A DNA stretch of 64,000 nt from an uncultured Actinomycetes bacterium (GCA_963772375.1 CAVYXG010000001.1:856086-920085); one strand, 5' to 3'; counted from the stretch's first letter, positions 26,114 to 50,933 are shown. Program-made: numbers and translations. Notes: generated by a model not told the origin, from the sequence alone.

Positions 26114-26633
26114 CCCCCTCTGACCTGCGGATCTTTGGTCAGAAGGACCACGAACGGGATCCGCCGCCAACCGAGGAATGGCCTTCTTGCCCACGCTTGC
26201 TCACGATCGCTCGGTTCGCATAAGAATGATCGAGGCGCGGGCAGGGCCCAGGGCACGTCCAACTTCCGAGAGTCGGTCAAGGTCAAAGCCCCTCAAAGCG
26301 CAAGGCGAGGAAGCCCTCTGACGACTTCTTCCGTGGCGGCCTCGGGGCGCGGTCGTCGGCCGCCGGTCTACGGGGCGCAGGCACTGAGCAACGGACCTCG
26401 CGCTGGCAGCCTCATGTAGTTGCCTCCATCTACAGCCGGCGGCACGTTCCATCCGGCGCGGACCCTGAGCTCGGGTTCCGCGTGGCCCGACGGATGACCT
26501 CCCGGACCAGGTCTTCACTGATGCTCGGCCAGTAGCACTCGACCAAGAAGGTCGCCGTGGTTCCTCCCATCGATCCGGGGGCCGTCGGAGAGGCTCTCGA
26601 ACTCAGCCAAGAGCCCTCCATGGAGTCTTCCCG

Positions 26634-27602
26634 CTAGCTCGGTCGCGGCCCCCAGTCCGGAGAGCTGTCGAAGATTGCCGAGTGGGTCACGTTGCGGAGC
26701 CCGGAGCCGTCCAAGTTCATGACCCAGATATCCGGATTCGATGGCTGCCCATCCACGCCGAGGTTATGAGAGACCGTGATCATCGTCCCGTCAGGGGAGA
26801 AGGAATAGGACCCCCACTGGTGGAAGCCGTTGAAGGTGTGGGTGATCCGGTGCAGGCCGCTCCCGTTCGGGTGGACCAGATACAGATTGTCCGTGCGGTC
26901 CTGCCCATCGTAGGACTCGAGCAGGATCCACCGCCCGTTCGGCGACCAGTCGGGGCCGTCACCCGCGTGCAGTCTCCAGGGGCTGACCCGCCGCACGTGC
27001 GTTCCGTTCAGGCGGATGGTGAAGACGGCATGCTGGCCGGATTTGCCGTTCCCTTGGAACACCAGGCGGGTTCCGCCAGGGGACCACTGGGCGAACTGAC
27101 CCTCATACTTGGTCGGTGTGACCTGGCGGACATGAGTGCCGTCCGCCTGCATCACGAACACCGCCACCAGGCCGATCGAATCGTCGTATCGAGTGAATGC
27201 GATCCGCTTCCCGTTCGGCGACCAGGCGGGATAGACATCGTCAACGCTCGGGTCCTTGCTGATCTGGGTGAGGTGCGTTCCGTCGGGCCTCACCTTGAAG
27301 ATTCTGGTGGGTTTGCAGGAACACACGGCGGCCTGCCGATAGAAGGCGATCCACCTGCCGTCCGGGGACCAGTCTGGCTCTGTGTCGAGGAAGACCTTCC
27401 CCCGGTGCGTGATCTGCCTCACACCGATGCCGTTGGGCCTGATGGTGAAGATTGCCCCCAGGGTGTGGTCGTCGTTGAAGTACCGCCGGAACGTGATGCG
27501 GCCGTTCTTCCCAGGCGCGGTCGCGCCGGCGGAGGGGGAGCTCGACAGCATTGTCACCAACGCCGCTGTGACTGCCGCCACGAAGACGATGAAGCGTTTC
27601 AT
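26634..27602 (-). CDS. secreted TolB-like beta-propeller protein (PD40/WD40-like repeats)
   Basis: Signal peptide MKRFIVFVAAVTAALVTML followed by repeated DWSPDGRWIAF / AWSPNGKRIAF / QWSPGGTRLVF / DWSPNGRWILL blades. Confidence 0.8.
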   Translation of the reverse strand: MKRFIVFVAAVTAALVTMLSSSPSAGATAPGKNGRITFRRYFNDDHTLGAIFTIRPNGIGVRQITHRGKVFLDTEPDWSPDGRWIAFYRQAAVCSCKPTRIFKVRPDGTHLTQISKDPSVDDVYPAWSPNGKRIAFTRYDDSIGLVAVFVMQADGTHVRQVTPTKYEGQFAQWSPGGTRLVFQGNGKSGQHAVFTIRLNGTHVRRVSPWRLHAGDGPDWSPNGRWILLESYDGQDRTDNLYLVHPNGSGLHRITHTFNGFHQWGSYSFSPDGTMITVSHNLGVDGQPSNPDIWVMNLDGSGLRNVTHSAIFDSSPDWGPRPS

Positions 27603-27677
27603 GCTCAGGTTCCCCTTTCGATAGGGCGGAACGGGGGGAATGCAGCCCCGACGGGGCCGTCGGAGTGCTGTCGCAGA

Positions 27678-28136
27678 TCAGTCGATGTGCATCGTCCCGT
27701 CGTAGACGTCGACGATCAGCGGCAAGGTGGAATCCGGGGTGCCCGCCAGGGTTCCGCTGCCGTGGAGCTTCGCGAAGGCCCCAGTCCCGTCAGTGACGTT
27801 CCAGGTTCCGATGGTCGAGCCGTCCTCGAAGTTCAGCGTCACCCGCAGCAGCACCTCGAACGTGTCGCCCGGGCTCCCCGCACAGGCGAACAGCTTCCCG
27901 ATGAGGATCTGGGCGTGGCCACCCCCGCCCCCGACGAGTCCGCTGTTGAAGGCGTTGGTGACGACTCCAGATGGGCAGACTGGCCCGGTGGCGGTGAACG
28001 GGTCCGGCGGTTGGGCCGTGGTCTGGACGACGATGTGCACGGCTTGCGATGTCGAGGCCCCCGCCGGGATCGCCAGCGTCCCCGCGCCCGCCACCAACAT
28101 GGCGGTGAGGCTCAGAACGATCAGTGGTCGCTTCAT
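27678..28136 (-). CDS. secreted hypothetical protein
   Basis: 152 aa from ATG 28136. Signal peptide MKRPLIVLSLTAMLVAGAGTLAIPAGAS. Confidence 0.55.
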   Translation of the reverse strand: MKRPLIVLSLTAMLVAGAGTLAIPAGASTSQAVHIVVQTTAQPPDPFTATGPVCPSGVVTNAFNSGLVGGGGGHAQILIGKLFACAGSPGDTFEVLLRVTLNFEDGSTIGTWNVTDGTGAFAKLHGSGTLAGTPDSTLPLIVDVYDGTMHID

Positions 28137-28306
28137 ATGGATCTCCCTTCCGAGTTCGTCTCCGGACTCAACAGGCGACGTTCGCGCACTGCGCCGGGCC
28201 AGCGAGATGAACATCGCAGTCACGCGATCGAGCCCCAACGACTGAACTTCTCCTCATGGATGTCCTCCTCGCAACCTCTCGTTCCGAGTCGGTTGGTGAC
28301 GTCTCG

Positions 28307-28918
28307 TCAAGTGACACCCTCCTCTACGCTGGAAGCCGCCTCGGCCAGAGCAGCGGGAGGCCCCGATATCCCGGTGAGGAGCTCGAATGCCGCATCAACC
28401 TCGGATGGAGCGTTGTTTGGGATCGCGGGCATGAAGGCCCGATCGCCGATCTCCCACGAGATGATCTCGGCGCCCTGTTCGTAGCCGCGAAGCGCCCACG
28501 GCTCCTCCCGGCTGTTCCAGGCATCGAGGCCTCGGAGCCGAAGGAAGCGCGACTTCAACTCGGCCGGAACGTTCGCATCGAGCCAGATGTGGCCCATCTC
28601 GTGGAGCAGGGTCCCTCGGCTCAACTCGTCGACATGCGTCGTGCACATGTCGACCGTGCCGTCCGCCGCGTAGCCGGTCGTGCCGCCGCACTCAGATAGA
28701 TCCTCGTGGAACCGCACCTCCACGTCGGGCGGGTCAAGCCTTGCGACCTCGAACCGACCGATCGCCCACCGAACGAGTCGGAGCTGATCGGGCCGGCCAC
28801 CCACGACCACGACCCGTGGATTCCGCCACGAGATGTGGGTCCCGACCTCCGAGCCCCCTCCCACGGTGAAGACTGCGAGCACCGCGATCAGAGCCCGGAA
28901 CGGCTTGCCGTTGCCCAT
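28307..28918 (-). CDS. secreted putative HExxH zinc metalloprotease
   Basis: 203 aa from ATG 28918. N-terminal hydrophobic signal. LLHEMGHIWLDANVP motif. Confidence 0.55.
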   Translation of the reverse strand: MGNGKPFRALIAVLAVFTVGGGSEVGTHISWRNPRVVVVGGRPDQLRLVRWAIGRFEVARLDPPDVEVRFHEDLSECGGTTGYAADGTVDMCTTHVDELSRGTLLHEMGHIWLDANVPAELKSRFLRLRGLDAWNSREEPWALRGYEQGAEIISWEIGDRAFMPAIPNNAPSEVDAAFELLTGISGPPAALAEAASSVEEGVT

Positions 28919-29090
28919 GGGCCGAGGCTCGCGGCCGGGCCTGGAGGTCCAGGTGGAAATCGCTGGAAGAACGCGTGAGGTCTTGGGCTTCACGCGTTCT
29001 TCAAGGACCGAGGTTCAGGGTTCCGGCATGAACCGGCGATCGTTGGGAGCCAGCCTTCCCACCCGGGAACGGGCGGCGTACCGTGCGACC
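28919..29090. promoter_or_regulatory. divergent intergenic region between the secreted-protease gene and the giant SARP-kinase-STAND gene
   Basis: 172-bp gap between divergently transcribed starts. Confidence 0.35.
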
Positions 29091-32000
29091 ATGCGCTTCC
29101 TGGTCCTCGGGCCCCTCGAGGTCACGAACGCCGTCGGGCCGATCCCGCTCGGCGGTCCCAAGCAGCGCCTCGTCCTCGCGAATCTCGCCGTGCGAGCGAA
29201 CGCGGTCGTCTTGGCAGAGACCCTGATCGATCAACTCTGGGGGGACGAACCCCCCGACTCGGCAAAGAACACCCTCCAGACGTACATCTCGCACCTGCGC
29301 AAGGCCCTCGGCCCCGATCGGATCGAGGGGCGTTCTTCCGGGTACGTGCTCCACCTCGACCCTCACGAGCTCGACGCCACGCGGTTCGAGCAGCTTCTCG
29401 GGGAGGCCCGGGCCGCTGACGGACAGCCCGATCGCGTCGGCGGGATTCTGCGAGAGGCACTCGCGATGTGGCGAGGATCGGCGTTCGCCGACCTCGCCGT
29501 CGAGGGATCCCTGGCCGGCGAGATCGCCCGGCTCGAGGAGCTCCGCCTCGGGGCGATCGAAGACCGGATCGCCGCGGATCTTGCATCGGGCCGCCATACC
29601 GGCTTGATCGGCGAGCTCGAGGGCCTCACGCGAGAGCATCCGCTGCGCGAACGCCTCTGGGCCCACCTGATGGTGGCGCTCTACCGGTCCGGCCGGCAGG
29701 CGGACGCCCTCGCGGCGTTCCGGCGGGCCCGCAAGCTCCTCGCGGAGGAGCTCGGCGTCGACCCGTCGCCCGAGCTCCAACGCCTGCAGGATCGAATCCT
29801 CAAGCAGGATCCCGATCTGGAGGTCACGGGGGAGCCCCTCCGCGGCTACCGGCTGCTCGACAAGATCGGGGAGGGCGCGTTCGGACTCGTCTACCGGGCG
29901 GTGCAACCGCAGGTCGGCCGCGAGGTCGCGATCAAGTCGATCCACCCCGAGCTCGCCAACCAACCCGACTTTGTCCGCCGCTTCGAGCACGAGGCGCAGG
30001 TCGTGGCACGCCTGGAGCATCCGCACGTCGTGCCGCTGTACGACTACTGGCGCGACCCCGACGGGGCGTACCTCGTCATGCGGTTGCTGCGCGGCGGGAG
30101 CCTCGAGGATCTGCTCGAACAGGGACCACTGGACTCCACTCGCGCCGCTACCTTCCTGGACCAGGTCGCCGGCGCGCTCGCCGCCGCACACCGCCAGGGC
30201 GTCGTGCACCGGGACGTCAAGCCGGGCAACGTGCTGCTCGACGAGGAAGGCAACGCCTACCTCACGGACTTCGGCGTCGCCCTCGATGCGGGCGCGCCCG
30301 AGCAGACCGCGGGGCTCATGGTGCGCGGCACGCCTGCCTACCTCTCCCCCGAGCAGATCCGCCTCGAGCCCGCGACGGGCCAATCCGACATCTACGCGCT
30401 CGGCGTGGTGCTGTACGAGATGCTCACCGCCGAGCATCCGTTCCCCGAGTCCTCTCTCCGGGTGCTGCTCGACCGGCACATGCACGAACCGCTCCCCTCG
30501 GCTCGAAGGGTTCGACCCGAGATTCCGCCTGCGGTCGACTTGGTGATCGCCCGGGCGACCGCGAAGGACGCGGGAGGACGATTCGCCGACCCGCTCGAGT
30601 TCGCGGCCGCGTTCCGCGGGGCGATCCAGGGGACGGGCGCCCGCCTCGCCGCGACCGAAGAGCTCCGCAACCCCTACAAGGGGCTCCGCGCGTTCCTCGA
30701 GGCCGACGCGGGCGACTTCTTCGGCCGCGATGTCGTGACGAGGCGGCTGGTCGAACGTATGGCTGAGCCGGGTGCCAGTGCGAGGTTCCTGTGCATCGTG
30801 GGGCCCTCGGGCTCAGGCAAGTCCTCGGTGGTGAAAGCCGGCTTGGTCCCGGCCCTGCGCCGCGGCGTGATCGCCGGATCAGAGCTCTGGTACATCGTCG
30901 AGATGATGCCGGGCCCGCATCCGCTGCGTGAGCTCGACACCGCGCTGCTGTCGGTGGCGACCTCGCCGCAGCCCACGCTGGTGGAGGAGCTCGAGCGCGA
31001 CGACCTCGGACTGCTTCGGGCCGTGGACCGGGTCCTCCCCGACCCCTCGGCCGAGCTCGTGATCGTGGTGGATCAGCTCGAGGAGGTGTTCACGCTCGTC
31101 GACGACCAGGTCGAGCGGGCACGGTTCCTCGAGGCGATCGTCGCCGCGGCGACGCACCGAATGAGTCGGGTACGCATCGTGTCGACGCTCCGCGCAGACT
31201 TCTTCGATCAGCCCTTGTCGGTGCGCGGCTTCGGCGACCTGCTCGCCGCCCGGACCGAGGCGATCACGCCGATGTCACCCGAGGAACTGGAGCGCGCGAT
31301 CTCCGGTCCAGCCGAGTGCGTCGGGCTCGGTATCGAGCCCGGCCTGGTCGCGGCGATGGTCGCCGACGTCGTCGATCGTCCGGGCGCCTTGCCCTTGTTG
31401 CAATATGCGCTCACCGAGCTCGTCGAGCGGGACGAGGTCTCCTCGCTCTCCCTCGAGAGCTACCGGTCGATCGGCGGAGTCTCGGGCGCCCTCGCCCGGC
31501 GCGCCGAACGGCTCTACGGGGCGATGGACGAGCCCGGACGAGACGCGTGCCGCCAGCTGTTCCTGCGTCTCGTTACGCTCGGCGAGGGCACCGAGGACAC
31601 TCGCCGCCGCGTCCGTCGATCCGAGATCCCGGCCATGGACGGAGCGACGGACGGGGTGATCGAATCCTTCGGCCGCCACCGCCTGCTGTCCTTCGATCGC
31701 GACGCGCTGTCGCGAGAGCCAACCGTCGAGATCGCCCACGAGGCACTGCTTCGCCAATGGCCCCGTCTCGAGGACTGGTTGGGGGAGGACGCGGAAGCAC
31801 GGGCGCTCCGGGGCCACCTGATCGACGCGGCACGCCAGTGGGATGCGGGCGGCCGCGACGACTCAGAGCTCTATCGGGGCGCCAGGCTCGCGGGGGCGCT
31901 GGACTTCTCCTCCCGGGACGGCCGGCACTTGAACGAGCTCGAGCGGAGCTTTGTCGCGCTCAGTCGGGAGGCGAGCGAACGGGAGACGAGGCGGATCCGT

Positions 32001-34367
32001 AGGACGAACCGGCGTCTGCGCGGCCTGCTCGGTGCGGTCGCACTCTTTCTGGTGGTCGCGTTGATCGCCGCCGGCATCGCGCTCGTGCAGGGAGGCCATG
32101 CGCGGCGCTCGGCGACGGTCGCGCTTTCCCAGAGCCTCGGGGCCCAGGCGATCGCCGAGACACAGCTCGACACCGCACTGCTGCTCGCCGAGGAGGGCGT
32201 GAACCTGGACGACTCCCTACGAACGGAGAGCGACCTACTGGCTGTGCTGCTCCACAGCCCCTCAGCGATCCACGTCCTACATGTCGGCGGGATCGGCGCC
32301 CCTCCGGAGGACATCGTCGTGAGCCCCGACGGCGGGACGCTCGCCGTGCTGACCCGGGATCGCACCCTGCGGTTCTACGACACTTCGACGCTCCAGCCGA
32401 TTGGCAAGCCGGTGCACGACGTGCCCGCGTACAACTCCCGCAGGCCGGCGTTCACCCCCGACAGTTCCGGGCTCTGGGTCCTCCGCGGACCCGGGATCCA
32501 GATGATCAACGTTCGGACCGGCCGGGTCGAGAGCACGATCAGGCTCCACCAGGATGTGGAGAACGTCTACTCGCCCGTTCTTCTCTCTCGGGACGGCCGG
32601 GTCGTGTACCTCCAACTCGAGGGATGGGAGAGCGTCGCAGCGTGGAACACCTCGACGGGACGCCGCCTGGCCGAGGTCAACGTCCCCGGGCTGTCGCTCG
32701 GGATGCTCGCCCTCGCCCAGGAAGCGGGAGAGGTCGTGGCGCTCACGACCCAGGGCGGAGGGCGAATCCAGGTCCGGGACGGCAGGACGCTGGCCCTGGA
32801 GCGGTCGTTTCCCGTGCAGCTTCCTGCGGCGGACCAGTACCAGCTCGCCGTTTCACCGGACGGGCGCACGGCCGCTTGCACCCTGTTCCACCCCGGCGCC
32901 GACCAATCGATCCGATTCGTCGACCTTCGGACCGGCCAGGTCAGGAAGGGCGCCGGCGACCAGGCGGGCGAAGGCCAGGTCGCGTTCTCCCACGATGGCA
33001 GGACAGCCGTCAGCGTGACCGACGACGGCTTCAATATCTCTGTCTGGGATGTCCCTTCGGCCACGCAGGTTCGAACGCTGAGCGGCCACGCCGGAGAGAT
33101 CCTGCAGGCCGCCTTCGATCCCTCGGGGCGAACCCTTTACTCTGCAGCGGATGACGGGAACGTGTTCGCGTGGGATCTCTCGGGACATCGGAGCTTCGGT
33201 CGCTCGTTCACTGCCAGCCAAGGGTCATTCGGTGGGCCCAACGTCGGTCACCATTTCCCATACTTCTCCGCGTCCCCGGATGGGAAGAGCATCGCAGTCG
33301 CCCACGCGACGCAGTTCGATCCCGATGGGGGGGTCAGCACGGGCGGCGAGGTCAATATCGTCGACCTCGCTACCGGGCGGGTCACGACCCGGGTAAGGGT
33401 CGCGGGTCGAGTGCCCGGCATCGACTCGGTCATCTACGCGGAGTTCTCCCCGGACGGCACCGAACTCCTCGTCACCCCCGGCCCCTCGAGCAACGGAGAC
33501 ATCACCCTGTGGCGGTTGGATGGTCACACGGCCAGCCTCGTCCGCACGTTCACCGGACTCAGCGCGACCCCGGTTCGTGACGATAACGGGTTTTGGAACG
33601 CCCCCTGGGCGACGTTCAGCCCTAACGGCAAGTGGATCGCCGGGGTGGACCGACGCGAGAACGGCACCAGCCGAATGATGGAATGGGATGCCGCCACGGG
33701 ATCCGAGCGCGTGGCGCCCCTGGATCTCCATTGGACATCCACCGACGGCCTGCATTTCGATGGCCTCAACCAGAACGTGGTGTATAGCCCCGACGGGTCG
33801 TTGATTGCAACGTCCGTCTTGGGTGACCGTACTGTGATCGTGGACGCAAGGACGCTGAAGCCGGTCCGTACGCTGCCTGATCCAGAAGGGGTCGCGTTCG
33901 TCGCGTTCTCACCGACTAACGACAGGCTGCTCGCGGAGGGGTCGTCGAATGTGGGAATCGTTCGCCTGATTGACGTGACGACAGGCAAACAGGCGGCCGA
34001 AGTAACGGCCTCCAACCCGGGACTGTGGAGCGTCCAGTTCGACCACACCGGGAGCATGCTGCTGACAGATGCGCCGGATGGTGTGGCGCGGTTGTGGTCC
34101 GTCCCCGACCTCCAGCAGATCGGATCCGACCTTCCAGGCCTCTCTAGCGTGGTGGGGGCGGCCACTTTCGCGGGCCGGGGAAGGTCCACGATGGCCGTGC
34201 TCCTTTACGCGACCGGCACGGCGTTCGCATACACGGCGTCGCCCTCCGCGTGGGAGCGCCAGGCGTGCCTCGTGGCCGGTCGAAACTTCACGAAGGCGGA
34301 GTGGGCCCGATACGTCGGCGACCGTACGTACGAGGATGTCTGCCCTGAGTATCCGCCCGGATCCTGA
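29091..34367 (+). CDS. multidomain signal-transduction protein: SARP (OmpR-wHTH+BTAD) - Ser/Thr protein kinase - NB-ARC/STAND P-loop NTPase - TM helix - WD40 beta-propeller
   Basis: Starts MRFLVLGPLEV (SARP). Kinase motifs GEGAFGLVY, VAIK, HRDVKPGNVLL, DFG, APE. P-loop GPSGSGKSS. Single TM LLGAVALFLVVALIAAGIALV. Then many WD repeats (LSGHAGEILQAAFDPSGRTLYSAADDGNVFAWDL). 1758 aa. Confidence 0.85.
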   Translation: MRFLVLGPLEVTNAVGPIPLGGPKQRLVLANLAVRANAVVLAETLIDQLWGDEPPDSAKNTLQTYISHLRKALGPDRIEGRSSGYVLHLDPHELDATRFEQLLGEARAADGQPDRVGGILREALAMWRGSAFADLAVEGSLAGEIARLEELRLGAIEDRIAADLASGRHTGLIGELEGLTREHPLRERLWAHLMVALYRSGRQADALAAFRRARKLLAEELGVDPSPELQRLQDRILKQDPDLEVTGEPLRGYRLLDKIGEGAFGLVYRAVQPQVGREVAIKSIHPELANQPDFVRRFEHEAQVVARLEHPHVVPLYDYWRDPDGAYLVMRLLRGGSLEDLLEQGPLDSTRAATFLDQVAGALAAAHRQGVVHRDVKPGNVLLDEEGNAYLTDFGVALDAGAPEQTAGLMVRGTPAYLSPEQIRLEPATGQSDIYALGVVLYEMLTAEHPFPESSLRVLLDRHMHEPLPSARRVRPEIPPAVDLVIARATAKDAGGRFADPLEFAAAFRGAIQGTGARLAATEELRNPYKGLRAFLEADAGDFFGRDVVTRRLVERMAEPGASARFLCIVGPSGSGKSSVVKAGLVPALRRGVIAGSELWYIVEMMPGPHPLRELDTALLSVATSPQPTLVEELERDDLGLLRAVDRVLPDPSAELVIVVDQLEEVFTLVDDQVERARFLEAIVAAATHRMSRVRIVSTLRADFFDQPLSVRGFGDLLAARTEAITPMSPEELERAISGPAECVGLGIEPGLVAAMVADVVDRPGALPLLQYALTELVERDEVSSLSLESYRSIGGVSGALARRAERLYGAMDEPGRDACRQLFLRLVTLGEGTEDTRRRVRRSEIPAMDGATDGVIESFGRHRLLSFDRDALSREPTVEIAHEALLRQWPRLEDWLGEDAEARALRGHLIDAARQWDAGGRDDSELYRGARLAGALDFSSRDGRHLNELERSFVALSREASERETRRIRRTNRRLRGLLGAVALFLVVALIAAGIALVQGGHARRSATVALSQSLGAQAIAETQLDTALLLAEEGVNLDDSLRTESDLLAVLLHSPSAIHVLHVGGIGAPPEDIVVSPDGGTLAVLTRDRTLRFYDTSTLQPIGKPVHDVPAYNSRRPAFTPDSSGLWVLRGPGIQMINVRTGRVESTIRLHQDVENVYSPVLLSRDGRVVYLQLEGWESVAAWNTSTGRRLAEVNVPGLSLGMLALAQEAGEVVALTTQGGGRIQVRDGRTLALERSFPVQLPAADQYQLAVSPDGRTAACTLFHPGADQSIRFVDLRTGQVRKGAGDQAGEGQVAFSHDGRTAVSVTDDGFNISVWDVPSATQVRTLSGHAGEILQAAFDPSGRTLYSAADDGNVFAWDLSGHRSFGRSFTASQGSFGGPNVGHHFPYFSASPDGKSIAVAHATQFDPDGGVSTGGEVNIVDLATGRVTTRVRVAGRVPGIDSVIYAEFSPDGTELLVTPGPSSNGDITLWRLDGHTASLVRTFTGLSATPVRDDNGFWNAPWATFSPNGKWIAGVDRRENGTSRMMEWDAATGSERVAPLDLHWTSTDGLHFDGLNQNVVYSPDGSLIATSVLGDRTVIVDARTLKPVRTLPDPEGVAFVAFSPTNDRLLAEGSSNVGIVRLIDVTTGKQAAEVTASNPGLWSVQFDHTGSMLLTDAPDGVARLWSVPDLQQIGSDLPGLSSVVGAATFAGRGRSTMAVLLYATGTAFAYTASPSAWERQACLVAGRNFTKAEWARYVGDRTYEDVCPEYPPGS

Positions 34368-34372
34368 CTTAG

Positions 34373-34447
34373 CTTAGGATCCGGTGCCCGAAAGGGCGTG
34401 GGGGTTCGACTCCCCCCTCTCGCACCACGTCTGGCCTGCGGATCTTT
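34373..34447 (+). repeat. direct repeat of the tRNA-Leu(TAG) 3' half (att-like junction copy 2)
   Basis: 53 nt identical to tRNA positions 33-76 (TTAGGATCCGGTGCCCGAAAGGGCGTGGGGGTTCGACTCCCCCCTCTCGCACC) plus a conserved CTGnCCTGCGGAT flank. Starts 6 bp after the stop of the giant gene. Confidence 0.85.
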
Positions 34448-34722
34448 GCACAGACCGACCCGCCCTCGGCTCGACCGAGAAGGCCCGAATGGCCTTCTTG
34501 CTCACGCTTGCTCACAGAACTCCAATCGACGTTGGACCTGGGCGGTGGCTTCCGTGTCAGGGCCACCATCCCCACTGGACCCATGACTGAACCGCCCCGT
34601 GCTTGCCTGAGGCTAGACCCGCGAGATGCCATGCTGACCCGATCGTCCCACCCCGATGCTGGAGCCGGTTCAGAGGGGTGTGGGCTACTGGTGTCCGAAG
34701 CGCGCGTTAGGCAGCCACTACC

Positions 34723-35940: not shown

Positions 35941-36306
35941 CCGGAGTTGGCATCGACGTGTTCGTGGTTGACGCTGTCGCGGCTGTCGACCCAGGTCCGC
36001 AGGATCTCGTACGTGGCTCCTGCTCCCGTCGGGGCGCCGTTCGCGATGTCGATGATCGGCGCGGGGGACATCCATTCCTCCGAGCGCGACCCGTTGAGCC
36101 GCATGTCCCTGAAGCTCCGAGATCGCGTGCGAGTAGGTGTCGAGTGTGATCGTCACCGACAAGTGCCCGAACCGTTCGGACACCACCTTGACGTGCACGC
36201 CGGCCTGCAGCGACAGCGTCGCGTGGCACAGCGCAGTTCATCGGTCAGCGTCTGTTCGCGGCGATATGGAGCCGCATGCCCCATGTGAGCATGTCAGGCT
36301 CGGGAC

Positions 36307-37842: not shown

Positions 37843-37957
37843 CCGGTCCACTTGCTCACACCCTGCTCACGACAGATCGGGACCGGGTGCCATGGAACGA
37901 CACCAGACGACACGAATCGACGCGTCCACGCCCGGTTCGTGCGTGGCCGTACCCGCT

Positions 37958-39621: not shown

Positions 39622-39738
39622 AGGCGGGTTCGGCTCAGGACCCTTGAACACCCCGTTCGGACCGGTGTTGATGTAGGAGTCGACGAGGCGCTCCAGCTGG
39701 TCTCACCTGTTCCAGAAATCAGCGTGGCCGATGTACCC

Positions 39739-39781
39739 GGTGGGGGATCCCCCCTCTCGCACCCTCTTGAGCTGCGGATCT
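39739..39781 (+). repeat. degenerate tRNA-Leu 3'-end copy (T-loop deleted)
   Basis: GTGGGGGATCCCCCCTCTCGCACCCTCTTGAGCTGCGGATC matches the T-stem/acceptor/flank of the repeat family with an internal deletion. Confidence 0.5.
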
Positions 39782-40358
39782 CGCCCTGACGATCCTCGAC
39801 AAGGCCCGTCGACGACGAGCCACTCGGGGCGACAGACCCACACCTCGGTGAGCTTCCCATCGTGGACATACGAGACGACCGCCACGTTCGATTCGAGGGT
39901 CCGCCCCCCCGCGGGTTCGCTTCTGAGGCCGCAGCCACCCACCGCACATGCACCTGGGCCATGACCTCCCGGCCGCCGGGACAGGCCGGGCCAGGCTTGC
40001 CCTTGCCTCGGCCCGTGGTGCCGGCATTGGAGAACCGCTCCGTCCACACGCAGCAGGTCCACCACTTCGGGTGGGCATTGTGCATGAGGTCGAGGCACAT
40101 CCAGGCCACCACCTCGCGGGCCTCCGGCACCGGCTCGCCCTGACACCGGAAGTGGAGGGGCCGGGACCGCACGGAGTCCGGCGAAGGCGAGCCAGGTCAG
40201 CACGGCTGGCGGATGGCACCGATGCGCTGGTCAGAGCACGAATCGGAGTCTGGCGCCTTGAGGTATCGTACTTGTCCTTCACAGGGGGGCGGGGGTCTGT
40301 CCCCTTGGCACGTTCGGGAGGAGGTCGCCCATGGCGCCCTTCAGGAGGGAGGTCGCTC

Positions 40359-43106: not shown

Positions 43107-43265
43107 GGAGGGCGCAAGGGGTCCTGTCGTGTGCGGGGGCTCGCGTGCACTCGACCGTGGTAACCGCGCTAGGCTGGGGCGCCTCTCTAGTGTCCTGAGT
43201 CAGAAGTTCACAGGATGTTCACGAGGATGTCCCCAGGCATGGCTCGCGTCGTGCCAGGATGCGGT

Positions 43266-43772
43266 ATGGCCCGAGGACGACCGCTCCAGGAGCTCGCGGT
43301 GAGCGAGGAGGACCGGCAGGTGCTGGAGCGGTTCACCCGCCGGACCACCACGTCGCAGGCCCTTGCCCTGCGATCGAGGATCGTCCTGCGATCGGCCGAG
43401 GGCGCCACCAACCGGGAGGTGGCCCGGCAACTGGAGGTGACGCCCCAGACCGTCGGGAAGTGGCGGGCCCGCTACATCGAACGAGGCGTCGAGGGCCTCC
43501 TGGACGAGCCCCGGCCCGGGGCCCCCCGGAAGGTCACCGACGACAAGGTGGAGGAGGTCGTGGTCAAGACCCTCGAGTCCAAGCCGACCGACTCCACCCA
43601 CTGGTCCTCAAGGGACATGGCCAAGCGAGTGGGGCTGTCGCAGTCCACCGTGGCCCGGATCTGGCGGGCGTTCGGACTGCAGCCGTGGCGGAGCGAGTCC
43701 TGGAAGCTCTCCACCGACCCCCAGTTCGCTGCACCGATGGGCAACCGACGAGCCAACCCGTCGGTTCGATGA
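43266..43772 (+). mobile_element. IS630-family transposase N-terminal fragment (copy A)
   Basis: HTH/winged-helix region LQELAVSEEDRQVLERF...NREVARQLEVTPQTVGKWRARY...STVARIWRAFGL. No DDE domain follows. Confidence 0.6.
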
Positions 43773-43785
43773 CCTGTACAACCTC

Positions 43786-45220
43786 GTGTACGACCCGGCG
43801 TTCCTAGTGGTGGCATGGCGCCGGGTCCGTGGCAACAAGGGCGCCCGCACGGCCAGGGGTGGACGGGCAGACCGCCCGATCCATCGAGGCCGGACGGGGC
43901 GTGGAGGCGTTCTTGGACGATCTGCGGGCCGACGTCAAGGCCCGTACGTTCACCCCACTCCCCGTGCGGGAGCGGACCATCCCCAAGCCAGGAGGAACGA
44001 AGGTGAGAAGGCTGGGGATTCCCACGGTCCGCGACCGCGTCGTCCAGGCGGCCCTCAAGCTGGTGCTCGAGCCCATCTTCGAGGCGAGCTTTCAGCCGTG
44101 TTCGTACGGCTTCCGTCCGAAGCGCCGGGCCCAGGACGCCATCGCCGAGGTGCACTTCTTCGCCTCTCGTACCTACGAGTGGACGGTAGAAGGCGACATC
44201 GAGGCGTGCTTCGACCAGCTGTCGCACTCCGGCATCATGGACCGGCTGCGGCGGCAGATCGGAGACAAGCGGGTCCTGGTCCTGGTGAAGGCGTTCTTGA
44301 AGGCCGGCATCCTCAACGAGGGTGGGGCCGACGAGCACCCGATCACCGGCACGCCCCAAGGGGGCATCCTCTCACCGCTGCTCGCCAACATCGCCCTGTC
44401 CGTCCTCGACGATCACTTCGTCGAGGCGTGGGAGGAGGCGATGTCCACCGAGTACGCACGCCACAAGCGGCGCCGACAGGGACTGGCCAACTACCGCCTG
44501 GTCCGCTTCGCGGACGATTTCGTGGTGCTGGTGTCCGGGACCAGGGAGCACGCGGAGGCGTTGCGTGAGGAGGTGGCGACGGTGCTCGCGCCGATGGGAC
44601 TGCACCTGTCGGCGGAGAAGACGAGGATCAGCCACATCGACGAGGGGTTCGACTTCCTGGGCTTTCGCATCCGGCGGGAGCTCAAGAGGGGGACGGCGAA
44701 GCGCCACGTCTACACCTACCCTTCGAAGTCCGCGCTCGCGGCGGTCAAGGCGAAGGTGCGGGCGCTGACCCGACAGGCATGGAACCAACCGCTCAGCACC
44801 CTGATCCGCCGGTTGAACCCGGCGCTTCGGGGGTGGACCAACTACTTCCGGCACGGGGTGTCGAAGGCGACGTTCAGCTACCTCCGGTCCTTCGTCTGGT
44901 ACCGGGTGATCCGCTGGCTTCGCCGCAAGCACCCTCGGGCCTCATGGAAGGAACTGCGGCGGCGATACCTCGATCGGTGGTGGCCGCGGCACGGCGAGAA
45001 GGAGCTGTTCAACCCCGGCGCGGCGGTCGTCAGCAGATACCGCTACCGGGGGAACCGCATCCCCTCGCCGTGGTCGGAGCGGACCGGGCTGACGGCGGGG
45101 TAGTCACCGGCATGGATCGTGGAGAGCCGGATGCGTGGAGACGCGCACGTCCGGTTCGGAGGTGCGGGTCGGGGAAACGGGCTGATCGAAAGACGGCACC
45201 GCGCCCCGGCCCGACCCTAC
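43786..45220 (+). mobile_element. group II intron remnant: RT/maturase ORF (N-terminal frameshift) plus domains V-VI; 5' domains I-III missing
   Basis: RT motifs (RRLGIPTVRDRVVQ, FVRFADDFVV, maturase/X domain). Frame change near 43855 between the AWRRVRGNKGA and VDGQTA segments. Domain V GAGCCGGATGCGTGGAGACGCGCACGTCCGGTTC at 45123-45156. Intron ends ...CTAC at about 45220. Confidence 0.7.
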
Positions 45221-45802
45221 TCGTCGGCGGAGATCACGAACTCCCCAGCGTGCAGGCGCCTTCCCTTCCACCGCCGCTCGTACAGGTCGAGCGCCCGGGC
45301 GGCCTTGGGCTCGAAGTCGGGATCGCGGGGGAAGATCCAGCTCCTGAAGGTCCACGGCCGGATGGCGTCCTGCGACAGCCACCGCCAGATGGTCGAGTCC
45401 GACACGCTCGCCACGATCCCCCGGCGCAGGACCTCGGAGCGGATGTCGGGGACGTGCAGGCGGGAACGTGGGACGCCGAGCTCCGTCGGGAGCTGGCAGG
45501 CCAGTGCTTTGACCTCAACGACCACCAGAGGGGGAAAACGAGCTGGGTCTTCCCCGGCGGGGCCGTTCATCCAGTCCGGCAAGCCCCTCCTCGAGGAAGC
45601 GCTTGCGCCACTTCCACACGAGTTCGCGAGGAGTGTCGAGGCGGTGGGCGATCTCCTCGACTGGGACGTCATCGGCCGCCATGAGCACGATCTTCGCTCG
45701 GATCACATCTCGATACGGTAACGAGTACTTCCGGGCCCGTGCCTCCAGGACAGCCCGGTCCAGTGGGCCCAGACGCACGGTCAGTGGGCTCGTTCGCGAC
45801 AC
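45217..45802 (-). mobile_element. IS630-family transposase fragment (copy B), truncated at the group II intron junction
   Basis: N-terminal HTH (95-aa ORF) and, after a frameshift, the middle part ending ...GEFVISADE exactly where the intron 3' end abuts. Confidence 0.6.
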
Positions 45803-45879
45803 GGCATCCCCCTTCGTCGGAGGATACCGTACTTCAGAAGGGCGTCAGAATCACGTTAGTGTAATTCTGACGGCATGTA

Positions 45880-45952
45880 CTTAGGATCCGGTGCCCGAAA
45901 GGGCGTGGGGGTTCGACTCCCCCCTCTCGCACCCCTTCTGACCTGCGGATCT
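45880..45952 (+). repeat. direct repeat of the tRNA-Leu(TAG) 3' half (copy 4) with extended downstream homology to copy 1
   Basis: Perfect 53-nt core. A further roughly 90 bp downstream (45998-46087) is about 85% identical to 26181-26277, including ATGGGCTTCTTGCTCACGCCTGCTCAC. Confidence 0.85.
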
Positions 45953-46518
45953 TCGGTCAGAGCGGTCTCGGATGTGGCCCGGGAGAAGACGCGAGATGGG
46001 CTTCTTGCTCACGCCTGCTCACGATCGCTCGGTTCGAATGAGGATGATCGAGGCGTCGGCAGGGCCCCATGGCCACGTCCAACTCTGTCCTCGTTAGCGA
46101 AGAGCGCTTCGATACGGGCTCCCATGTCGGGGAGGCTGCCATGGCTGGCCTGGACACTCAGCTGAAGCCAGTCCGCTGAAGCCTGCCGCGGAGAAGGGCT
46201 CGTCGCCCCCGGGGACCTGGACTGCGATCAGCGTTGGGAGGCGACTCCCGCGGGGAGGTGCGGGGGCGGAGGGTCAGTCTTTGTCAGCTGCCCAGACGGG
46301 GTTCTGACTTGAGCGCCCATGACGCCCCCCTCTACACGTCTCGGGCTGTCTGGTTACGGCTCCTGCCGGATGATCCTGGCGAGCCGTTCCGCGTCGACGG
46401 GCCCCGCGAGCCAGGTCAAGGGCCACGGGGGACGCCCCATGGACGGCCACGAGATCTCCCCGCTGCTGGCCAGCGGTGGTCCCCATCCGCGGCCACGAGA
46501 AGTCCCCACTTGTCTTGC

Positions 46519-47296
46519 TCAGCCCAGGGGCACCACTCCCTTGCCTGACGTGGCCTCCGCGAAGCGGAAGCTCTTCTCGCCCTCGGTCACGACGACATGG
46601 GCATGGTGGAGCAGCCGGTCGACGGTCGCCGTGGCGAGCGTCTTCGGCATGAGCTCGTCGAAGCCCGCCGGGTGGAGGTTCGAGGACACGGCCACCGAGC
46701 GCCGCTCGTAGGCCGCGTCGATGAGCCGGTAGAACGCCTCCGCGGCCTCCGCCCCCACCGGGAGCATCCCGATGTCGTCGACCACGATGAGATCGGCCCG
46801 GCAGATCCGGGCGATGGCCCTCGCCACCGAGTCGTCGGCGCGGTGGCGTCGGATGATCGCTCCGAGCGTCTCGAGGGAGAACCAGCTCACCCGGAGCCCC
46901 CGCTCCACCGCGGCGCTGCCGAGCGCCTCGAGGAAGTGCGACTTCCCGGTTCCCGACGGACCGCACAGCGCCAGGTTCTCCCGGCGCTGCACCCACTCGA
47001 GCGTCCGCAGGGCGTGCTGGGTGGGACGGGGGATCGAGGAGGCCTGCTCGTCCCACGCCTCGAAGGTCTTGCCGGAGGGAAACCCGGCGCTCCGACGTCG
47101 GTTGGCCATCATGGCCCGATCCCGTCCCGCCACCTCCTCGGCCAGCAGGACCCGCAAGGCTTCGGCCGGGTCCCACCGCTGGGCCTTGGCCGTGGCGAGG
47201 ACGTCGCGGGCCGCCGAGCGCAGGTACGGCAGGCGCAGACGGCGGAGGTGGGCGTCGACCTCGTCGAGGGGAGAGGGATCGATGCTCGAACTCATC
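46519..47296 (-). CDS. istB: IS21-family transposition helper ATPase IstB
   Basis: MSSSIDPSPL... Walker A GPSGTGKSH, DDIG Walker B. 258 aa. Confidence 0.85.
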
Positions 47297-48776
47297 GTCC
47301 GAACCCCTCCCACGCGGTGGTCCCCCGTTGCAGGCTGTGGGCCTCCGTGGCCTGCGAAGTCGGTCCATCCGCCGATGTGTCGTGAGCGAGGATCGCTGCG
47401 AGGTCTCCGTCGGCGAACCGCCCGCACGTCGCGGCGGTCCCCAGGGCTCGGTCGAGCGCCTCCGGCCCGTACAGCTTCGAGAGCTCGAGGGCCTCGGCCA
47501 TCTTGGAGCGGATGCGCGCGGCGCCGACCGATGCCGCCTCGATGAGCCACTGCGTCGCGCCGTTCCCCAGGGCGAGGAACGCCTGCTCCTCGGGCGTGCG
47601 AGCTCGGGGGACCCTGGCCAGGGGCCCGGAGGGCCGCTGCGGGTAATGCGCGTCGTCGATCATGGGTCGGCCCGGCGTCGATCGGCGGTGGCGGGCCACC
47701 TCCCGTGCTCCGGCAGAGGGGTCGACCGAGACCACCACCACCTGGTCCCCCTCGGTGCGGACCCACACCCGGCGGCCGATGAGCGAGTACGGCACCGAGT
47801 ACAGGACGCTGTGGAACGACACCACGGAGTTCGACGCGACCGTGCGGGTCTGCCCGAACGCGGTGGTGTACGCCTCGCCGGGGACAGGATGCAGGCGCCG
47901 TCGCTCCTCGGCCAGCAGCTCCGCCGGCGGACGGCCCGTGGCCCGGTGGGGCCGGGCGTTGACCCGTTCGCAGAACGCCTCGCACGCTGCCCGGAGCTCT
48001 TCGAAGGAGCGGTACGCCGGCAGCAGGTTCGCCTCGGTGGGGACGAGGTCGGCCTTGGCGATGCGCACCGTTGCCTCCGAGCCGCCCTTGGACTCGGGGT
48101 CGGCGGGGACGCACGTCGCGATGGTCAGGCCGTAGTGCCGGGCCGCGGCCACGATCTCGGGATGGCGAACGGGGATGCGGGCGATGTGGGTGGTGGTCAC
48201 GGTCTTCTCGTTGTCGGTGAGGCCGTACGTCGGGACGCCCCCGAACGCCCGAAGGGTCCGGTCGATCCCCGCGACCACGGTGGGGAGCGTCTTGTCCAGG
48301 ATCGGGAACACGACGCGGTAGCGGCTCCACGCCAGCCAGGCGCAGAACAACTGCGTGGGGCCCTCGGGGACCTCCGGCCCGGTGCCGTAGTCCCACTGGA
48401 ACCACATCCCGGGCTCGGGGATCCACGGGCGGTACACCCGCAGCCGTCCCTCGCGGAAGCGCTGCCTGGCCCCGGCCACGGCCCGCCTGGTCGTCCGCTC
48501 CGAGCCCTCGTAGCCGAGCGCGATGAGCTTCTCGTGGCAGCGGTCGGCGCGGATCTTGCCGTGGGAGCGCTCCACCCACTCCTCGATCTTCGGCAGGAGT
48601 GGATCGATGAGCTTCGGACGGTCGATCCCCGAGGATGGCGACCGCCCCCCGTCCCGGAGCGCGACGTAGCGCTCGACGGTGTGATGGTCGACCCCCGCGA
48701 GCTCCGCCGCGGCGCGGTAGGAGCCAGTCAGGTCGAAGGCCTCCAGCATGTCCATGATCTCCTCGTCAGACTTCAT
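47292..48776 (-). CDS. istA: IS21-family transposase IstA
   Basis: 494 aa. HTH N-terminus. DDE region (WFQWDYG...TDNEKT). Confidence 0.85.
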   Translation of the reverse strand: MKSDEEIMDMLEAFDLTGSYRAAAELAGVDHHTVERYVALRDGGRSPSSGIDRPKLIDPLLPKIEEWVERSHGKIRADRCHEKLIALGYEGSERTTRRAVAGARQRFREGRLRVYRPWIPEPGMWFQWDYGTGPEVPEGPTQLFCAWLAWSRYRVVFPILDKTLPTVVAGIDRTLRAFGGVPTYGLTDNEKTVTTTHIARIPVRHPEIVAAARHYGLTIATCVPADPESKGGSEATVRIAKADLVPTEANLLPAYRSFEELRAACEAFCERVNARPHRATGRPPAELLAEERRRLHPVPGEAYTTAFGQTRTVASNSVVSFHSVLYSVPYSLIGRRVWVRTEGDQVVVVSVDPSAGAREVARHRRSTPGRPMIDDAHYPQRPSGPLARVPRARTPEEQAFLALGNGATQWLIEAASVGAARIRSKMAEALELSKLYGPEALDRALGTAATCGRFADGDLAAILAHDTSADGPTSQATEAHSLQRGTTAWEGFGR

Positions 48777-49792
48777 CTGCCTCCCTCTCCAGGGGCCGAC
48801 TGCGGACTTGGACGTGCGCAGTCAAACCCGGGGAGGGAGGTCCTCCTGGGAGCAGGAAACGGTCAGTTGACGTCAGGCCGGGGAGATGTCCCGGCCGCGG
48901 GTGGGGAATCCTGGTGGCCGCCAGTGGGGAGTTCCGTGGCCGCCGGTGGGGAGCTTTTCACGGCCGCCGACAACTCCCGCCGCCACCCGCCAGCAGGTGC
49001 TCGAAGGACACGTTCCCGTCCGGATGCCGGACGAGCCGGAACCAGGCGGGGATCTCCGTCTTCAACTCCTGACCCGCCATCAATGCGGGGCCGATCTCAT
49101 CGGAGTCCCGGGGCAGCGTCACGCCGTCGCCCCGCCACGGCGGCGGCTCAGAATCCATCTCCCCTCCTCCCACCGACGGGCATGGACGCGAACGTGACGC
49201 CGTTGCACGGTTCCGACGGCACGGCCGATGCGCCTCACGTCGCACTCCAGATGCTGAACCCGCCCTCGGCCGACCTCAGGTTGTTCGTGCCGACGACGGC
49301 CCGGATTCCGAGATAGCGAAGGGCCCGTCCGAAGACCGGCCCTTCATGTCAGGTCTCGTTGCCCTACGAACCTTGCGGCCCGCCGGTCACCGCGTCCCGA
49401 CAGGTGCGGACGATAGCGGGCCACCGCTTCCCCGGGCAAGCTCAGGACCTGTTCTTGTCCCTCTTTCTTCTCATCCCCGTACATGAGCCAGATTCAGGCA
49501 GTTCACGAATCGGAGGTCGGGAGGTGGACGCCAACATGTCCGACTACGATCCGCCGCTGTTCCTCATCGAGACACCAGTAGATGCCGGCGCACGTGGCGC
49601 CACAACCGCGAGACGTCGTTGGCCCGGCGCTAGCGGGTGAGGGAGCCTGAGCGATACGACGGCCGGGCCCGGACGCCGCCTTCTCTCCACGGCGTGAGAC
49701 ACCCGGGAGGCCCTGGGATGAGGAGTCGACTGGCCCTGAACCGCCCCGCCCGTCGGCGCTCACGCTGATCCAACGGCCGCAGGAGAACGCCC

Positions 49793-50245
49793 GTGATCGC
49801 GATCGAGGAATGCATCGTCATCGATCTCCCCCGTCGGCGGGTCTTTCCGGTCGCGGCCAGACCCGAGAACATGCCGCTGTGGAACTCAGCGGTCCTCGAG
49901 AGCGAGCTCGACGGCGCACTCATGGAGGGCACACGGGTCGTTCAGCGCATCCATCTCTTGGGCCGCCGGTTCCAGACCGCCTTTCGGGTGACCTGCTACG
50001 AACCCCCGCGCCAGATCACGTACACGAGCACCGCGGGGCCGATGGACATCCGAGGAACCATGGAATTCGTCCCCCTGCAAGGCCGAACGCTCGTTCGGTG
50101 GACCGTGGCCGGTAGTGGTCGAGACTTCTTCCGGGTCGGGGAGGGCGTCCTCGTCAGGGCCGGCCGGCACGAGATGCGCTCCTGCCTGGAGAACCTGAAA
50201 CGCTTCGTGGAGCAGACTGCGTCGATCCCAGCCGGGAGTCGATGA
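49793..50245 (+). CDS. SRPBCC-superfamily protein (polyketide cyclase/dehydrase-like)
   Basis: 150 aa with a START/Bet v1-like pattern (IEECIVIDLPRRRVFPVAARPENMPLWN...). Confidence 0.65.
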   Translation: MIAIEECIVIDLPRRRVFPVAARPENMPLWNSAVLESELDGALMEGTRVVQRIHLLGRRFQTAFRVTCYEPPRQITYTSTAGPMDIRGTMEFVPLQGRTLVRWTVAGSGRDFFRVGEGVLVRAGRHEMRSCLENLKRFVEQTASIPAGSR

Positions 50246-50520
50246 CGTAGTCGGCCACCTCGATCACGCCTCACTCCAAGGCCTTGACACGGAGGTCTCG
50301 AGATCAAGGGTTCTGCTCCCCGTTCTGCCGCCCCGTCTCGCGCTCGCGGCGATCCCGGGTGACCGTCGTATGGGAGTTGCAGAAGGCGTCGTAGGGGGCG
50401 GCACGGTCACCCAGCCCGGATGACGCAAGGGGCCTCTTCAGATGGGTCCCGTCACCACGGCGTCACCACGTAGGAGCACCGGCGAGCCCGCCGAGGACCT
50501 ACGGCAGCACAGCCTCCCAG

Positions 50521-50585
50521 GTCAGAAGGGGTGGGCGAGGGGGGAGTTGAACCCCCACCCGGTTGCCCGGACAGGATCCTGAATC
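50521..50585 (-). repeat. inverted 3'-half fragment of a tRNA-Leu(CAG)-like gene
   Basis: Reverse complement reads anticodon stem-loop CAGGA-TTCAGGA-TCCTG, variable arm TCCGGGCAACCGGGT, T-arm GGGGGTTCAACTCCCCC, acceptor CTCGCCCA. No matching 5' half. Followed by a CTGCTCACGCCTTGCTCAC arm-like motif. Confidence 0.6.
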
Positions 50586-50724
50586 CTGTCCCTGAACCGC
50601 TCGACCAATGCGAGATCCTGCTCACGCCTTGCTCACGACGGCTCGATTCTGACCGGCATTGGACAACACATAACGGCACTGGCCGAGGCGGACGTCGTGG
50701 GTCTCGTGCCTGCCGGCACTCGCT

Positions 50725-50795
50725 TTAGGATCCGGTGCCCGAAAGGGCGTGGGGGTTCGACTCCCCCCTCTCGCACCCCCTCTGACCTGCGAATC
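50725..50795 (+). repeat. direct repeat of the tRNA-Leu(TAG) 3' half (copy 5)
   Basis: Perfect 53-nt core plus CCTCTGACCTGCGAAT flank. ATGGCCTTCTTGCTCACGCTTGCTCAC follows about 70 nt downstream. Confidence 0.85.
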
Positions 50796-50933
50796 TTCGT
50801 TTCCTGCCGGCCCTCCGACCCTTCGCGACCAGGTCGGAAATGGCCTTCTTGCTCACGCTTGCTCACAGGGACGGCACCCAGACACTTCGTGCGATGCTTG
50901 AACCAGGGGGGTGAGATCTGGATCAGCCTGCCG

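Follow-up and report, generated by a model that had tools for sequence, protein, structure and literature searches.

A tRNA-Leu(TAG) gene is followed by an array of its own 3' half

The window analysed here is a 64,000-nt stretch of DNA (69.6% GC) from an uncultured Actinomycetes bacterium (GCA_963772375.1, CAVYXG010000001.1:856086-920085). It contains an intact tRNA-Leu(TAG) gene followed by an array in which the 3' half of this gene, i.e. its last 53-54 nt, recurs exactly at four further positions, and the five copies delimit four cassettes (Table 1). The subject of this report is a short motif, TTGCTCAC, that occurs in tandem pairs beside these copies and that a preliminary description of the window proposed to be an arm-type binding site of an integrase in hybrid attL/attR junctions. 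We refer to the part of the tRNA gene common to all copies, i.e. the last 53 nt from the anticodon loop (TTAGGATCC) through CGCACC, as the core, and to the flanking DNA upstream and downstream of a core as the P arm and the P' arm, respectively.

The sequence CTTGCTCAC occurs eight times in the window, exclusively on the + strand (starts at 26196, 34497, 34507, 37851, 46004, 50628, 50848 and 50858), compared with 0.23 occurrences expected from shuffled sequences. Similarly, the 27-mer ATGGSCTTCTTGCYCACGCYTGCTCAC occurs four times (starts at 26178, 34489, 45996 and 50840) with 0 occurrences expected. Thus, the motif of the preliminary description is present in numbers far above the shuffle expectation; the features listed there are real while their positions were off by 2-14 nt, and the true starts are the four 27-mer starts together with 37848 and 50618. 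The motif had also been said to lie downstream of every copy, which is the case for copies 1, 2, 4 and 5, while copy 3 has a degenerate version with a 1-nt deletion.

Two pairs are located upstream of cores. Because they end 86-87 nt before the cores of copies 3 and 5, we conclude that they are the opposite (P) arms of these copies. Consequently, the pair preceding copy 3 is present as described and is no separate oddity, and the pair that had been thought to follow an inverted tRNA-Leu(CAG) fragment belongs to copy 5. The TGCTCAC units are spaced by 11 nt in these upstream pairs versus 10 nt in the downstream pairs. Upstream of copy 2, only a P-arm-like remnant of ~20 nt (CCCGGATCC) is left, and no P arm was recognisable upstream of copy 4 in the alignment with relatives. 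The P' arms of copies 1 and 4 are 84% identical over 189 nt, and the P' pair of copy 5 is located ~70 nt from the stop codon of a convergent P-type ATPase gene.

The pairs delimit a site of ~300 bp

Alignment of the window copies with relatives, the loci of which are designated by L numbers, gave the anatomy of the site. Its order is a TTGCTCAC pair, ~87 nt with phased GACGACAC decamers, the 53-nt tRNA-Leu(TAG) 3' half, a spacer of ~60-70 nt, and a second TTGCTCAC pair. On the P side, the site starts with TTGCTCAC-N3-TTGCTCAC-GAC, and between this pair and the core there are five decamers ending in GACAC with a phase of exactly 10 nt. The best-preserved decamers read GGAACGACACC, GGATGGCACA, GGACGACACC, AGACGACACA and GGACGACACG; examples are found in L063 (3700-3810), L009 (120-240) and the window (37871-37956), although the window copies have partly degenerated. 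The decamers look like a second protein-binding array. Between the decamers and the core, the P arm has a proximal box (GCCGGGATCCGTGCCTGGC; referred to as the GGATCCGTGCC box). On the P' side, the end of the tRNA is followed by a conserved box (CCTCTGACCTGCGGATCTTCG), a variable spacer of 35-45 nt, and the final segment (G)CC(G/T)T-CTTGCTCAC-G-CTTGCTCAC-AGAA. Sequence conservation stops just outside each TTGCTCAC pair. Because nothing is conserved beyond either pair, we conclude that the pairs are the outer limits of the site. The four units share one orientation.

A form of the proximal P-arm box found in L063 and other fragments (CCGGGATCCGTGCC, ~45-30 nt before the core) resembles AGGATCCGGTGCC of the core itself and might represent either an additional core-type site or an old, nested anticodon-stem copy. 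In L016, L007, L002, L022, L088 and L093, a block right after the downstream pair is also kept (AGAAGTCGCGGCAGCGGGTTCC..CGATGCCG), which hints at a functional P' arm that reaches ~40 nt further in these loci; the window copies do not have this block.

The site layout recurs in uncultured soil Actinomycetota

The same layout recurs in ~60 loci of uncultured soil Actinomycetota, in which the downstream pair starts 58-62 or 70-72 nt after the end of the tRNA. In genomes (one per species), the exact 19-mer of the downstream pair has 32 matches, 17 of which are in metagenome-assembled genomes (MAGs) of uncultured Actinomycetes with 65-69% GC; 14 of these 17 matches are located 60-75 nt after an intact tRNA-Leu(TAG) gene or its 3' half, and the contig CAWCMT010000009.1 alone has five copies, similarly to the window. 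In metagenomes, a strict tRNA-Leu 3' end lies 58-61 or 70 nt upstream of the motif in 37 of 67 loci, while ~9 further loci have the post-tRNA box. The downstream pair was the search key and its perfect conservation is, in part, a selection effect. By contrast, the upstream pair is outside the search key, and yet 19 of 25 non-redundant fragments have it, at -136/-125 relative to the T arm; it is, therefore, independent evidence for the layout. Thus, in genomes as well as metagenomes, the motif is linked to tRNA-derived sequence, and in relatives the pairs are located at fixed distances from the core.

The remaining matches to the 19-mer were in Haloarcula, Paraburkholderia, Pantoea, Chloroflexi, low-GC tandem repeats and a Streptomyces locus (L030). 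Their number is close to the chance expectation for a database of this size, and they were set aside; by eye, the open reading frame (ORF) downstream of the match in L030 was taken for a putative PadR-like regulator. Within the family, L022 has a decaying copy (~60-215; site at 197) in which the tRNA part is mutated and the exact TTGCTCAC pair is kept, while L017 (- strand; motif at 7780-7798) has the pair and 40 nt downstream of it without any tRNA fragment. In L043/L079, the T arms of two fragments in one array have different sequences (GGAGGTTCGAATCCTCTC versus GGGAGTTCGACTCTCCCC), which would be expected of a cassette acquired from a host whose tRNA-Leu is different.

Empty and occupied sites show insertion at the anticodon loop

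By sampling homologues of the GDE gene that neighbours the array, we obtained two informative loci. In L113, in which the GDE gene is 87% identical to that of the window, the sequence after the same tRNA 3' half is unrelated and contains neither the box nor the motif, i.e. the target is empty. In L114 (89% GDE identity), the site is occupied and the pair starts 70 nt after the end of the tRNA. A complete insertion of 2.3 kb with both junctions is present in L007, where the tRNA and a P' arm are followed by one PD40 gene, a P arm with a core, and then flanking DNA without box or motif; L098 represents this locus after a deletion of 946 nt, which removed the right junction. The post-tRNA box follows every window copy and the copies in relatives, whereas neither the empty site in L113 nor the right-junction flank of L007 has it. 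In L015 and L109, the tRNA is present and the downstream pair is absent.

The position of the junction is evident from a cassette that is shared, with 95-97% identity, by L096, where it lies behind an intact tRNA, and by L087, L097 and L052, where it lies behind a P arm and a tRNA fragment: homology between the two situations starts exactly at CTTAGG in the anticodon loop. Conversely, L007 and L016 are 92% identical in the upstream flank and the tRNA while their first cassettes differ. Finally, the GC content of the window falls from ~73% before the tRNA to 64-70% across 26-51 kb. In total, the empty site in L113, the junctions in L007, the two shared-homology comparisons and the drop in GC content show that insertion is site-specific and occurs in the anticodon-loop region of tRNA-Leu(TAG).

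With each insert come a replacement 3' half of the tRNA and a P' arm, which consists of the post-tRNA box, the variable spacer and a TTGCTCAC pair, while the other end of the cassette brings a P arm, which consists of a TTGCTCAC pair, the five phased GACGACAC decamers and the proximal GGATCCGTGCC box. In this way, insertion regenerates the tRNA and displaces the old 3' half distally, and repeated insertion gives rise to the five-copy array of the window. Thus, as in attachment (att) sites, the core is part of the target, arms are present on both sides at a fixed distance, and empty as well as occupied sites with precise junctions are found.

The pairs probably represent arm-type sites of integrase-less cassettes

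Based on these observations, we estimate with a probability of roughly 0.65 that the TTGCTCAC pairs are the outermost arm-type sites of ~300-bp attP-like sites in small integrase-less cassettes that insert at the anticodon loop of tRNA-Leu(TAG). The earlier proposal that the tandem 9-10-bp units are arm-type sites of hybrid attL/attR junctions is supported by the fixed distances at which they flank the core on either side in dozens of contigs that are unrelated, by the location of the pairs at the limits of conservation, by the empty and occupied sites in close relatives, and by the junctions at the anticodon loop. We read the pairs as integrase arm sites because this layout matches that of attP in pACPL/pSAM2 as well as in L5 and lambda. 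The protein involved would be a tyrosine integrase in which arm binding resides in a domain of its own, and its gene would be located elsewhere in the genome or belong to a rare autonomous relative. It would bind the two pairs ~90-115 bp on either side of the crossover and bridge to the core, as in pSAM2, L5 and lambda, while the phased decamers would be bound by a factor for bending or directionality or by additional protomers of the integrase.

Several observations weigh against this reading. Neither Pfam on plausible ORFs nor a signature scan (box I / box II / Tyr in all six frames) detected a tyrosine or serine recombinase in the window, and none was found among ~220 ORFs flanking ~65 related sites using Pfam, PHROGs and the signature scan. 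In the latter case, 221 ORFs from ~60 loci were scanned with Pfam and PHROGs, the Pfam result comprising the best 25 families among the matches listed; in a second ORF set, the negative PHROGs result likewise holds among the matches listed, and the PHROGs and signature scans partly offset the scope of the Pfam result. Moreover, no phage, plasmid or viral contig in the collections searched has the arms, i.e. no autonomous member of the family was seen. We infer the identity of the binding protein from architecture alone, and likewise present-day activity of the sites. Finally, outside L043/L079 the copies of the tRNA half in a genome are usually identical to the resident tRNA, which also fits spread within lineages or homogenisation and not frequent horizontal transfer.

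Further searches gave a consistent picture. Pfam detected no integrase in the ORFs adjoining arms in relatives, and there was none in the gene tables around GDE homologues. Genes for an excisionase, for replication or for transfer were likewise missing, among the Pfam and PHROGs matches listed, from the window and the flanking ORFs. Similarly, int-xis, repSA-type replication genes and FtsK-like tra genes were absent between att sites in the window cassettes and, among the families listed, in relatives. Both the motif and a degenerate pattern of the tRNA half had 0 matches in viral contigs, and in blastn searches of phages and plasmids with two full units only the tRNA part was matched. A match of the P-arm pattern in a phage turned out to be unrelated low-GC phage coding sequence and was rejected. 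Because no integrase was found in cis, we take the cassettes to be non-autonomous and their recombinase to be encoded elsewhere and to act in trans.

Alternative explanations for the pairs

The preliminary description also raised the possibility that the pair opens a short conserved gene (MAFLLTLAH...) for a leader peptide or a small excisionase-like protein. Indeed, an ATG precedes the pair in four window copies and a few relatives (L054, L071/L077/L081, L043/L079 and L061), and copies 1 and 4 share a frame for 24 codons. However, most relatives are without the ATG and read GCCGTCTTGCTCAC or CCCGTCTTGCTCAC; in L114, the ATG is 2 nt nearer to the motif and, therefore, opens another frame; and the upstream pairs have no ATG while copy 3 has the 1-nt deletion. 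The products of the four window ORFs (47, 33, 33 and 24 aa) diverge past residue 9, the peptide of copy 1 actually reads MAFLPTLAH, in which position 5 is Pro instead of Leu, and between copies 1 and 4 there are 5 nonsynonymous versus 2 synonymous changes. Thus, neither the start codon, nor the frame, nor the amino-acid sequence is conserved among homologous copies; the small ORF was rejected, and we regard a gene at this position as exceedingly improbable. Only slightly less remote is a native signal of the tRNA-Leu locus, i.e. a promoter, an operator or a 3'-processing or termination signal, with the array arising by segmental duplication. The fixed distance of the motif from an intact tRNA in many genomes would be accounted for in this way, but the same tRNA is without the motif in L113, as is the right-junction flank in L007, and the tRNA genes in L015 and L109 are without the downstream pair. 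Moreover, the pair is also found upstream of displaced fragments in P arms that are unlike the 5' flank of the tRNA itself, and its units are direct and not inverted repeats. As for an RNA element or terminator, Rfam at the gathering threshold matched only tRNAs and a group II intron and had no match at the pairs, and the spacers between tRNA and pair fold no better than shuffled sequences (mean z = -0.44 for 50 spacers, 2 of which are below -2); this candidate was rejected.

An explanation that we consider unlikely but plausible is that the pairs bind a protein other than the integrase, e.g. a factor for directionality, a bending protein of the host, or a protein for the replication or partition of a transient circle, in which case the GACGACAC decamers could be the integrase arm sites. 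Five decamers at a phase of exactly 10 nt between pair and core are also typical of protein-binding arrays; against this explanation, the decamers are present on the P side only, whereas the TTGCTCAC pair is present on both arms and at their outer limits, where arm sites of integrases are usually located (as in pSAM2/pACPL), and no cassette has a replication or partition gene among the Pfam and PHROGs matches listed. It is also conceivable, if improbable, that the array consists of decayed integrative and conjugative elements (ICEs) or prophages that have lost their integrase, leaving the arms as fossils with no present function. Tandem decayed elements are common at tRNA genes (PMC5704250), and the degenerate arms in the window (P' pair in copy 3, P arm in copies 2 and 4) fit this explanation for these copies, as does the right junction lost from L098. 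However, among the matches listed there is no fragment of an integrase, excisionase, replication or transfer gene in ~20 complete cassettes or ~220 flanking ORFs, and single-gene cassettes of 1.5-2.3 kb have both arms intact (L009, L007 and L072). Moreover, exact pairs persist beside spacers, and even beside a tRNA part, that have drifted (the site at 197 in L022), and cassette content differs between relatives that are 92-97% identical, which argues for recent activity.

Cassettes and cargo

Table 1. Cores, arm pairs, cassettes and associated features of the array in the window (positions counted from the first nucleotide of the window)
Feature	Position	Strand	Evidence or remark
Intact tRNA-Leu(TAG), left junction of the array (attL)	26031..26115	+	ARAGORN; Rfam tRNA 57.7 bits; alignment
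Four cassettes between five cores	26116..50723		8.3, 3.6, 7.9 and 4.8 kb
Post-tRNA box CCCTCTGACCTGCGGATCTTTGGTC, start of P' arm	26116..26140	+	Alignment with relatives
P' pair, copy 1 (CTTGCCCAC G CTTGCTCAC)	26186..26204	+	Starts 70 nt past the tRNA end
Core copy 2 (tRNA 3' half)	34374..34426	+	
P' pair, copy 2 (CTTGCTCAC G CTTGCTCAC)	34497..34515	+	
P-arm pair, copy 3 (CTTGCTCAC ACC CTGCTCAC)	37851..37870	+	Ends 86 nt before the core
Inner P arm, copy 3	37871..37956	+	Partly degenerate phased decamers (GGAACGACACC AGACGACACG AATCGACGCG) and proximal box GGTTCGTGCGTGGCC
Core copy 3	37957..38010	+	
Degenerate P' pair, copy 3 (CTTCCTGAGCAC-CTTCCTCAC)	about 38075..38095	+	1-nt deletion
Core copy 4	45881..45933	+	
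P' pair, copy 4 (CTTGCTCAC G CCTGCTCAC)	46004..46022	+	
Inverted tRNA-Leu(CAG) 3' fragment	50518..50590	-	Followed, in its own orientation, by P'-like start CCTTCTGACCTGGG
P-arm pair, copy 5 (CTGCTCAC GCC TTGCTCAC)	50618..50636	+	Ends 87 nt before the core
Core copy 5	50724..50777	+	
P' pair, copy 5 (CTTGCTCAC G CTTGCTCAC)	50848..50866	+	
Cassette 1			PD40 beta-propeller protein; BTAD-kinase-nSTAND1-WD40 protein
Cassette 2			Adenylate cyclase; GT4 glycosyltransferase
Cassette 3			Hydrolase-cyclase; pentapeptide/M1 protein; inserted group II intron
Cassette 4			IS21 element; SRPBCC protein

The cargo of the window includes two adenylate-cyclase proteins as well as a protein of 1844 aa (28833-34367, +) with Trans_reg_C/BTAD, Ser/Thr kinase and nSTAND1 domains and WD40 propellers, the gene for which ends 5 nt before core copy 2. 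In the next cassette (cassette 2), the GT4 glycosyltransferase matches the GT4-conflict family weakly and below threshold (19.4 bits versus a cut-off of 26 bits; E = 0.00057). In view of these two proteins, part of the cargo may be of the conflict-system type. In relatives, the cargo comprises PD40 proteins, ECF sigma factors, cyclases, STAND NTPases, SIMPL and a beta-lactamase-like protein. Complete cassettes are 1.5-8 kb long and the orientation of the cargo is mixed. YkuD transpeptidases are frequent among the ORFs flanking sites, be it in the cassette or in the chromosomal flank. In L009, a cassette of 1.58 kb (246-1940) between two complete, non-identical sites contains a heliorhodopsin gene alone (Pfam E = 5.8e-97).

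Other elements are present in and near the array. The group II intron of cassette 3 (43829-45220, +) has a reverse transcriptase/maturase ORF (43829-45103) and one Rfam Intron_gpII match (45122-45220; 48.9 bits), and is adjoined by a fragment of an HTH transposase (43215-43772). Two IS21-type elements with Mu-transposase/rve and IstB ORFs are located in cassette 4 (46519-48776, -) and beyond the array (58490-60427, -). Directly next to the P arm of copy 5 lies the inverted tRNA-Leu(CAG) fragment, left over from a related site for a different leucine isoacceptor, which suggests that a related cassette family targets this isoacceptor and that a rearrangement joined two arrays. A tRNA-Ala(CGC) called by ARAGORN inside the pentapeptide/M1 ORF (42856-42928, -) was unconfirmed by Rfam and is probably a false positive.

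A conserved high-GC3 gene (i.e. one with a high GC content at third codon positions) without a Pfam match, encoding 409-550 aa, is present in the window (20493-21722, +), in L113 (6812-8464) and in L109 (12002-13546). It adjoins the GDE gene in L113 and L109, while in the window it is ~2.3 kb from the GDE gene with two genes in between. Since the genome with the empty site (L113) has this gene as well, it does not track the array.

Comparison with known systems

In L5 and lambda, attP spans ~250 bp and has pairs of arm-type sites on both arms ~100 bp from the core, which in the case of L5 is in a tRNA gene; tandem excisionase sites are located between the P-arm pair and the core. These two systems differ from the sites described here in being phage-borne with an adjacent integrase gene, whereas the present arms were in no phage or viral contig searched. 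In pACPL and pSAM2, the att identity segment is in a tRNA gene and lies between two 21-nt repeats, each a tandem of two 9-mers, and these repeats are bound by the integrase and needed for recombination (PMC3364876). The likeness to the present sites extends to a core that overlaps the 3' part of a tRNA, a direct repeat on both sides and tandem 9-mers (in their case GTCACCCAG TTA GTYACYCAG) (PMC3364876). By contrast, int, xis, repSA and tra are located beside attP in pSAM2/pACPL and none of them was found in the present cassettes, which in addition have different arms (TTGCTCAC), a different target (Leu-TAG) and extra phased decamers. In the plasmid collection, there was no DNA similarity to the present units beyond the tRNA part.

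Cis-mobilizable elements (CIMEs), known from the ICESt1 family of Streptococcus and from Streptomyces pathogenicity islands, keep attL and attR, are without integration and transfer genes, and stack in tandem, through site-specific recombination, where the target gene ends (PMC5704250). Similarly, the present cassettes are flanked by attL/attR-like sites, and no integration or transfer genes were found in them. However, CIMEs are described as decayed ICEs or integrative and mobilizable elements that usually reside near a functional relative, and none was seen at the ~65 present sites; moreover, the present cassettes are often one gene long and recur across many uncultured Actinomycetota. By analogy, an array of cis-mobilizable elements would be the closest description of the system. 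In the ssrA-linked tandem genomic islands of Dehalococcoides (PMC3146451), repeated 3' ends of a small RNA gene are reported to separate the islands, similarly to the cassettes described here.

Resembling integrons, the system has small, mostly promoter-independent cargo units with their own recombination sites, a single chromosomal site, and a recombinase that is not encoded by the cassettes. However, there is no intI near the present tRNA, and the sites are double-stranded and attP-like with direct repeats in the arms instead of attC hairpins; moreover, the spacers have no fold signal, the orientation of the cargo is mixed and the target is a tRNA gene. To our knowledge, classical integrons have not been reported in Actinomycetota. 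In total, the system is integron-like in logic, yet it lacks every feature that defines an integron. In a limited literature search, we found no description of this element family while precedents for arm sites and for CIMEs were found.

Implications

Arm-type sites beside a tRNA-derived core are textbook, and the motif itself is unsurprising. What is unusual is that a conserved design of attachment site is widespread and flanks tiny, cargo-only cassettes in every case examined, the cargo of which spans signalling proteins, conflict-type proteins and a lone heliorhodopsin gene. We tentatively consider it possible, although doubtful, that the array represents not mobile-element debris but a tRNA-Leu-anchored, integron-like cassette system of soil Actinomycetota, in which cassettes of one to a few genes, each with a complete attP-like site of 300 bp between TTGCTCAC pairs, are captured, stacked and exchanged by a lambda-type integrase encoded elsewhere in the genome. 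With the enzyme in hand, the 300-bp site together with its target would also offer a ready integration tool. If it is true that a trans-acting integrase services these sites, then the array would, with no report of its kind in our limited literature search, be a cassette-capture platform.

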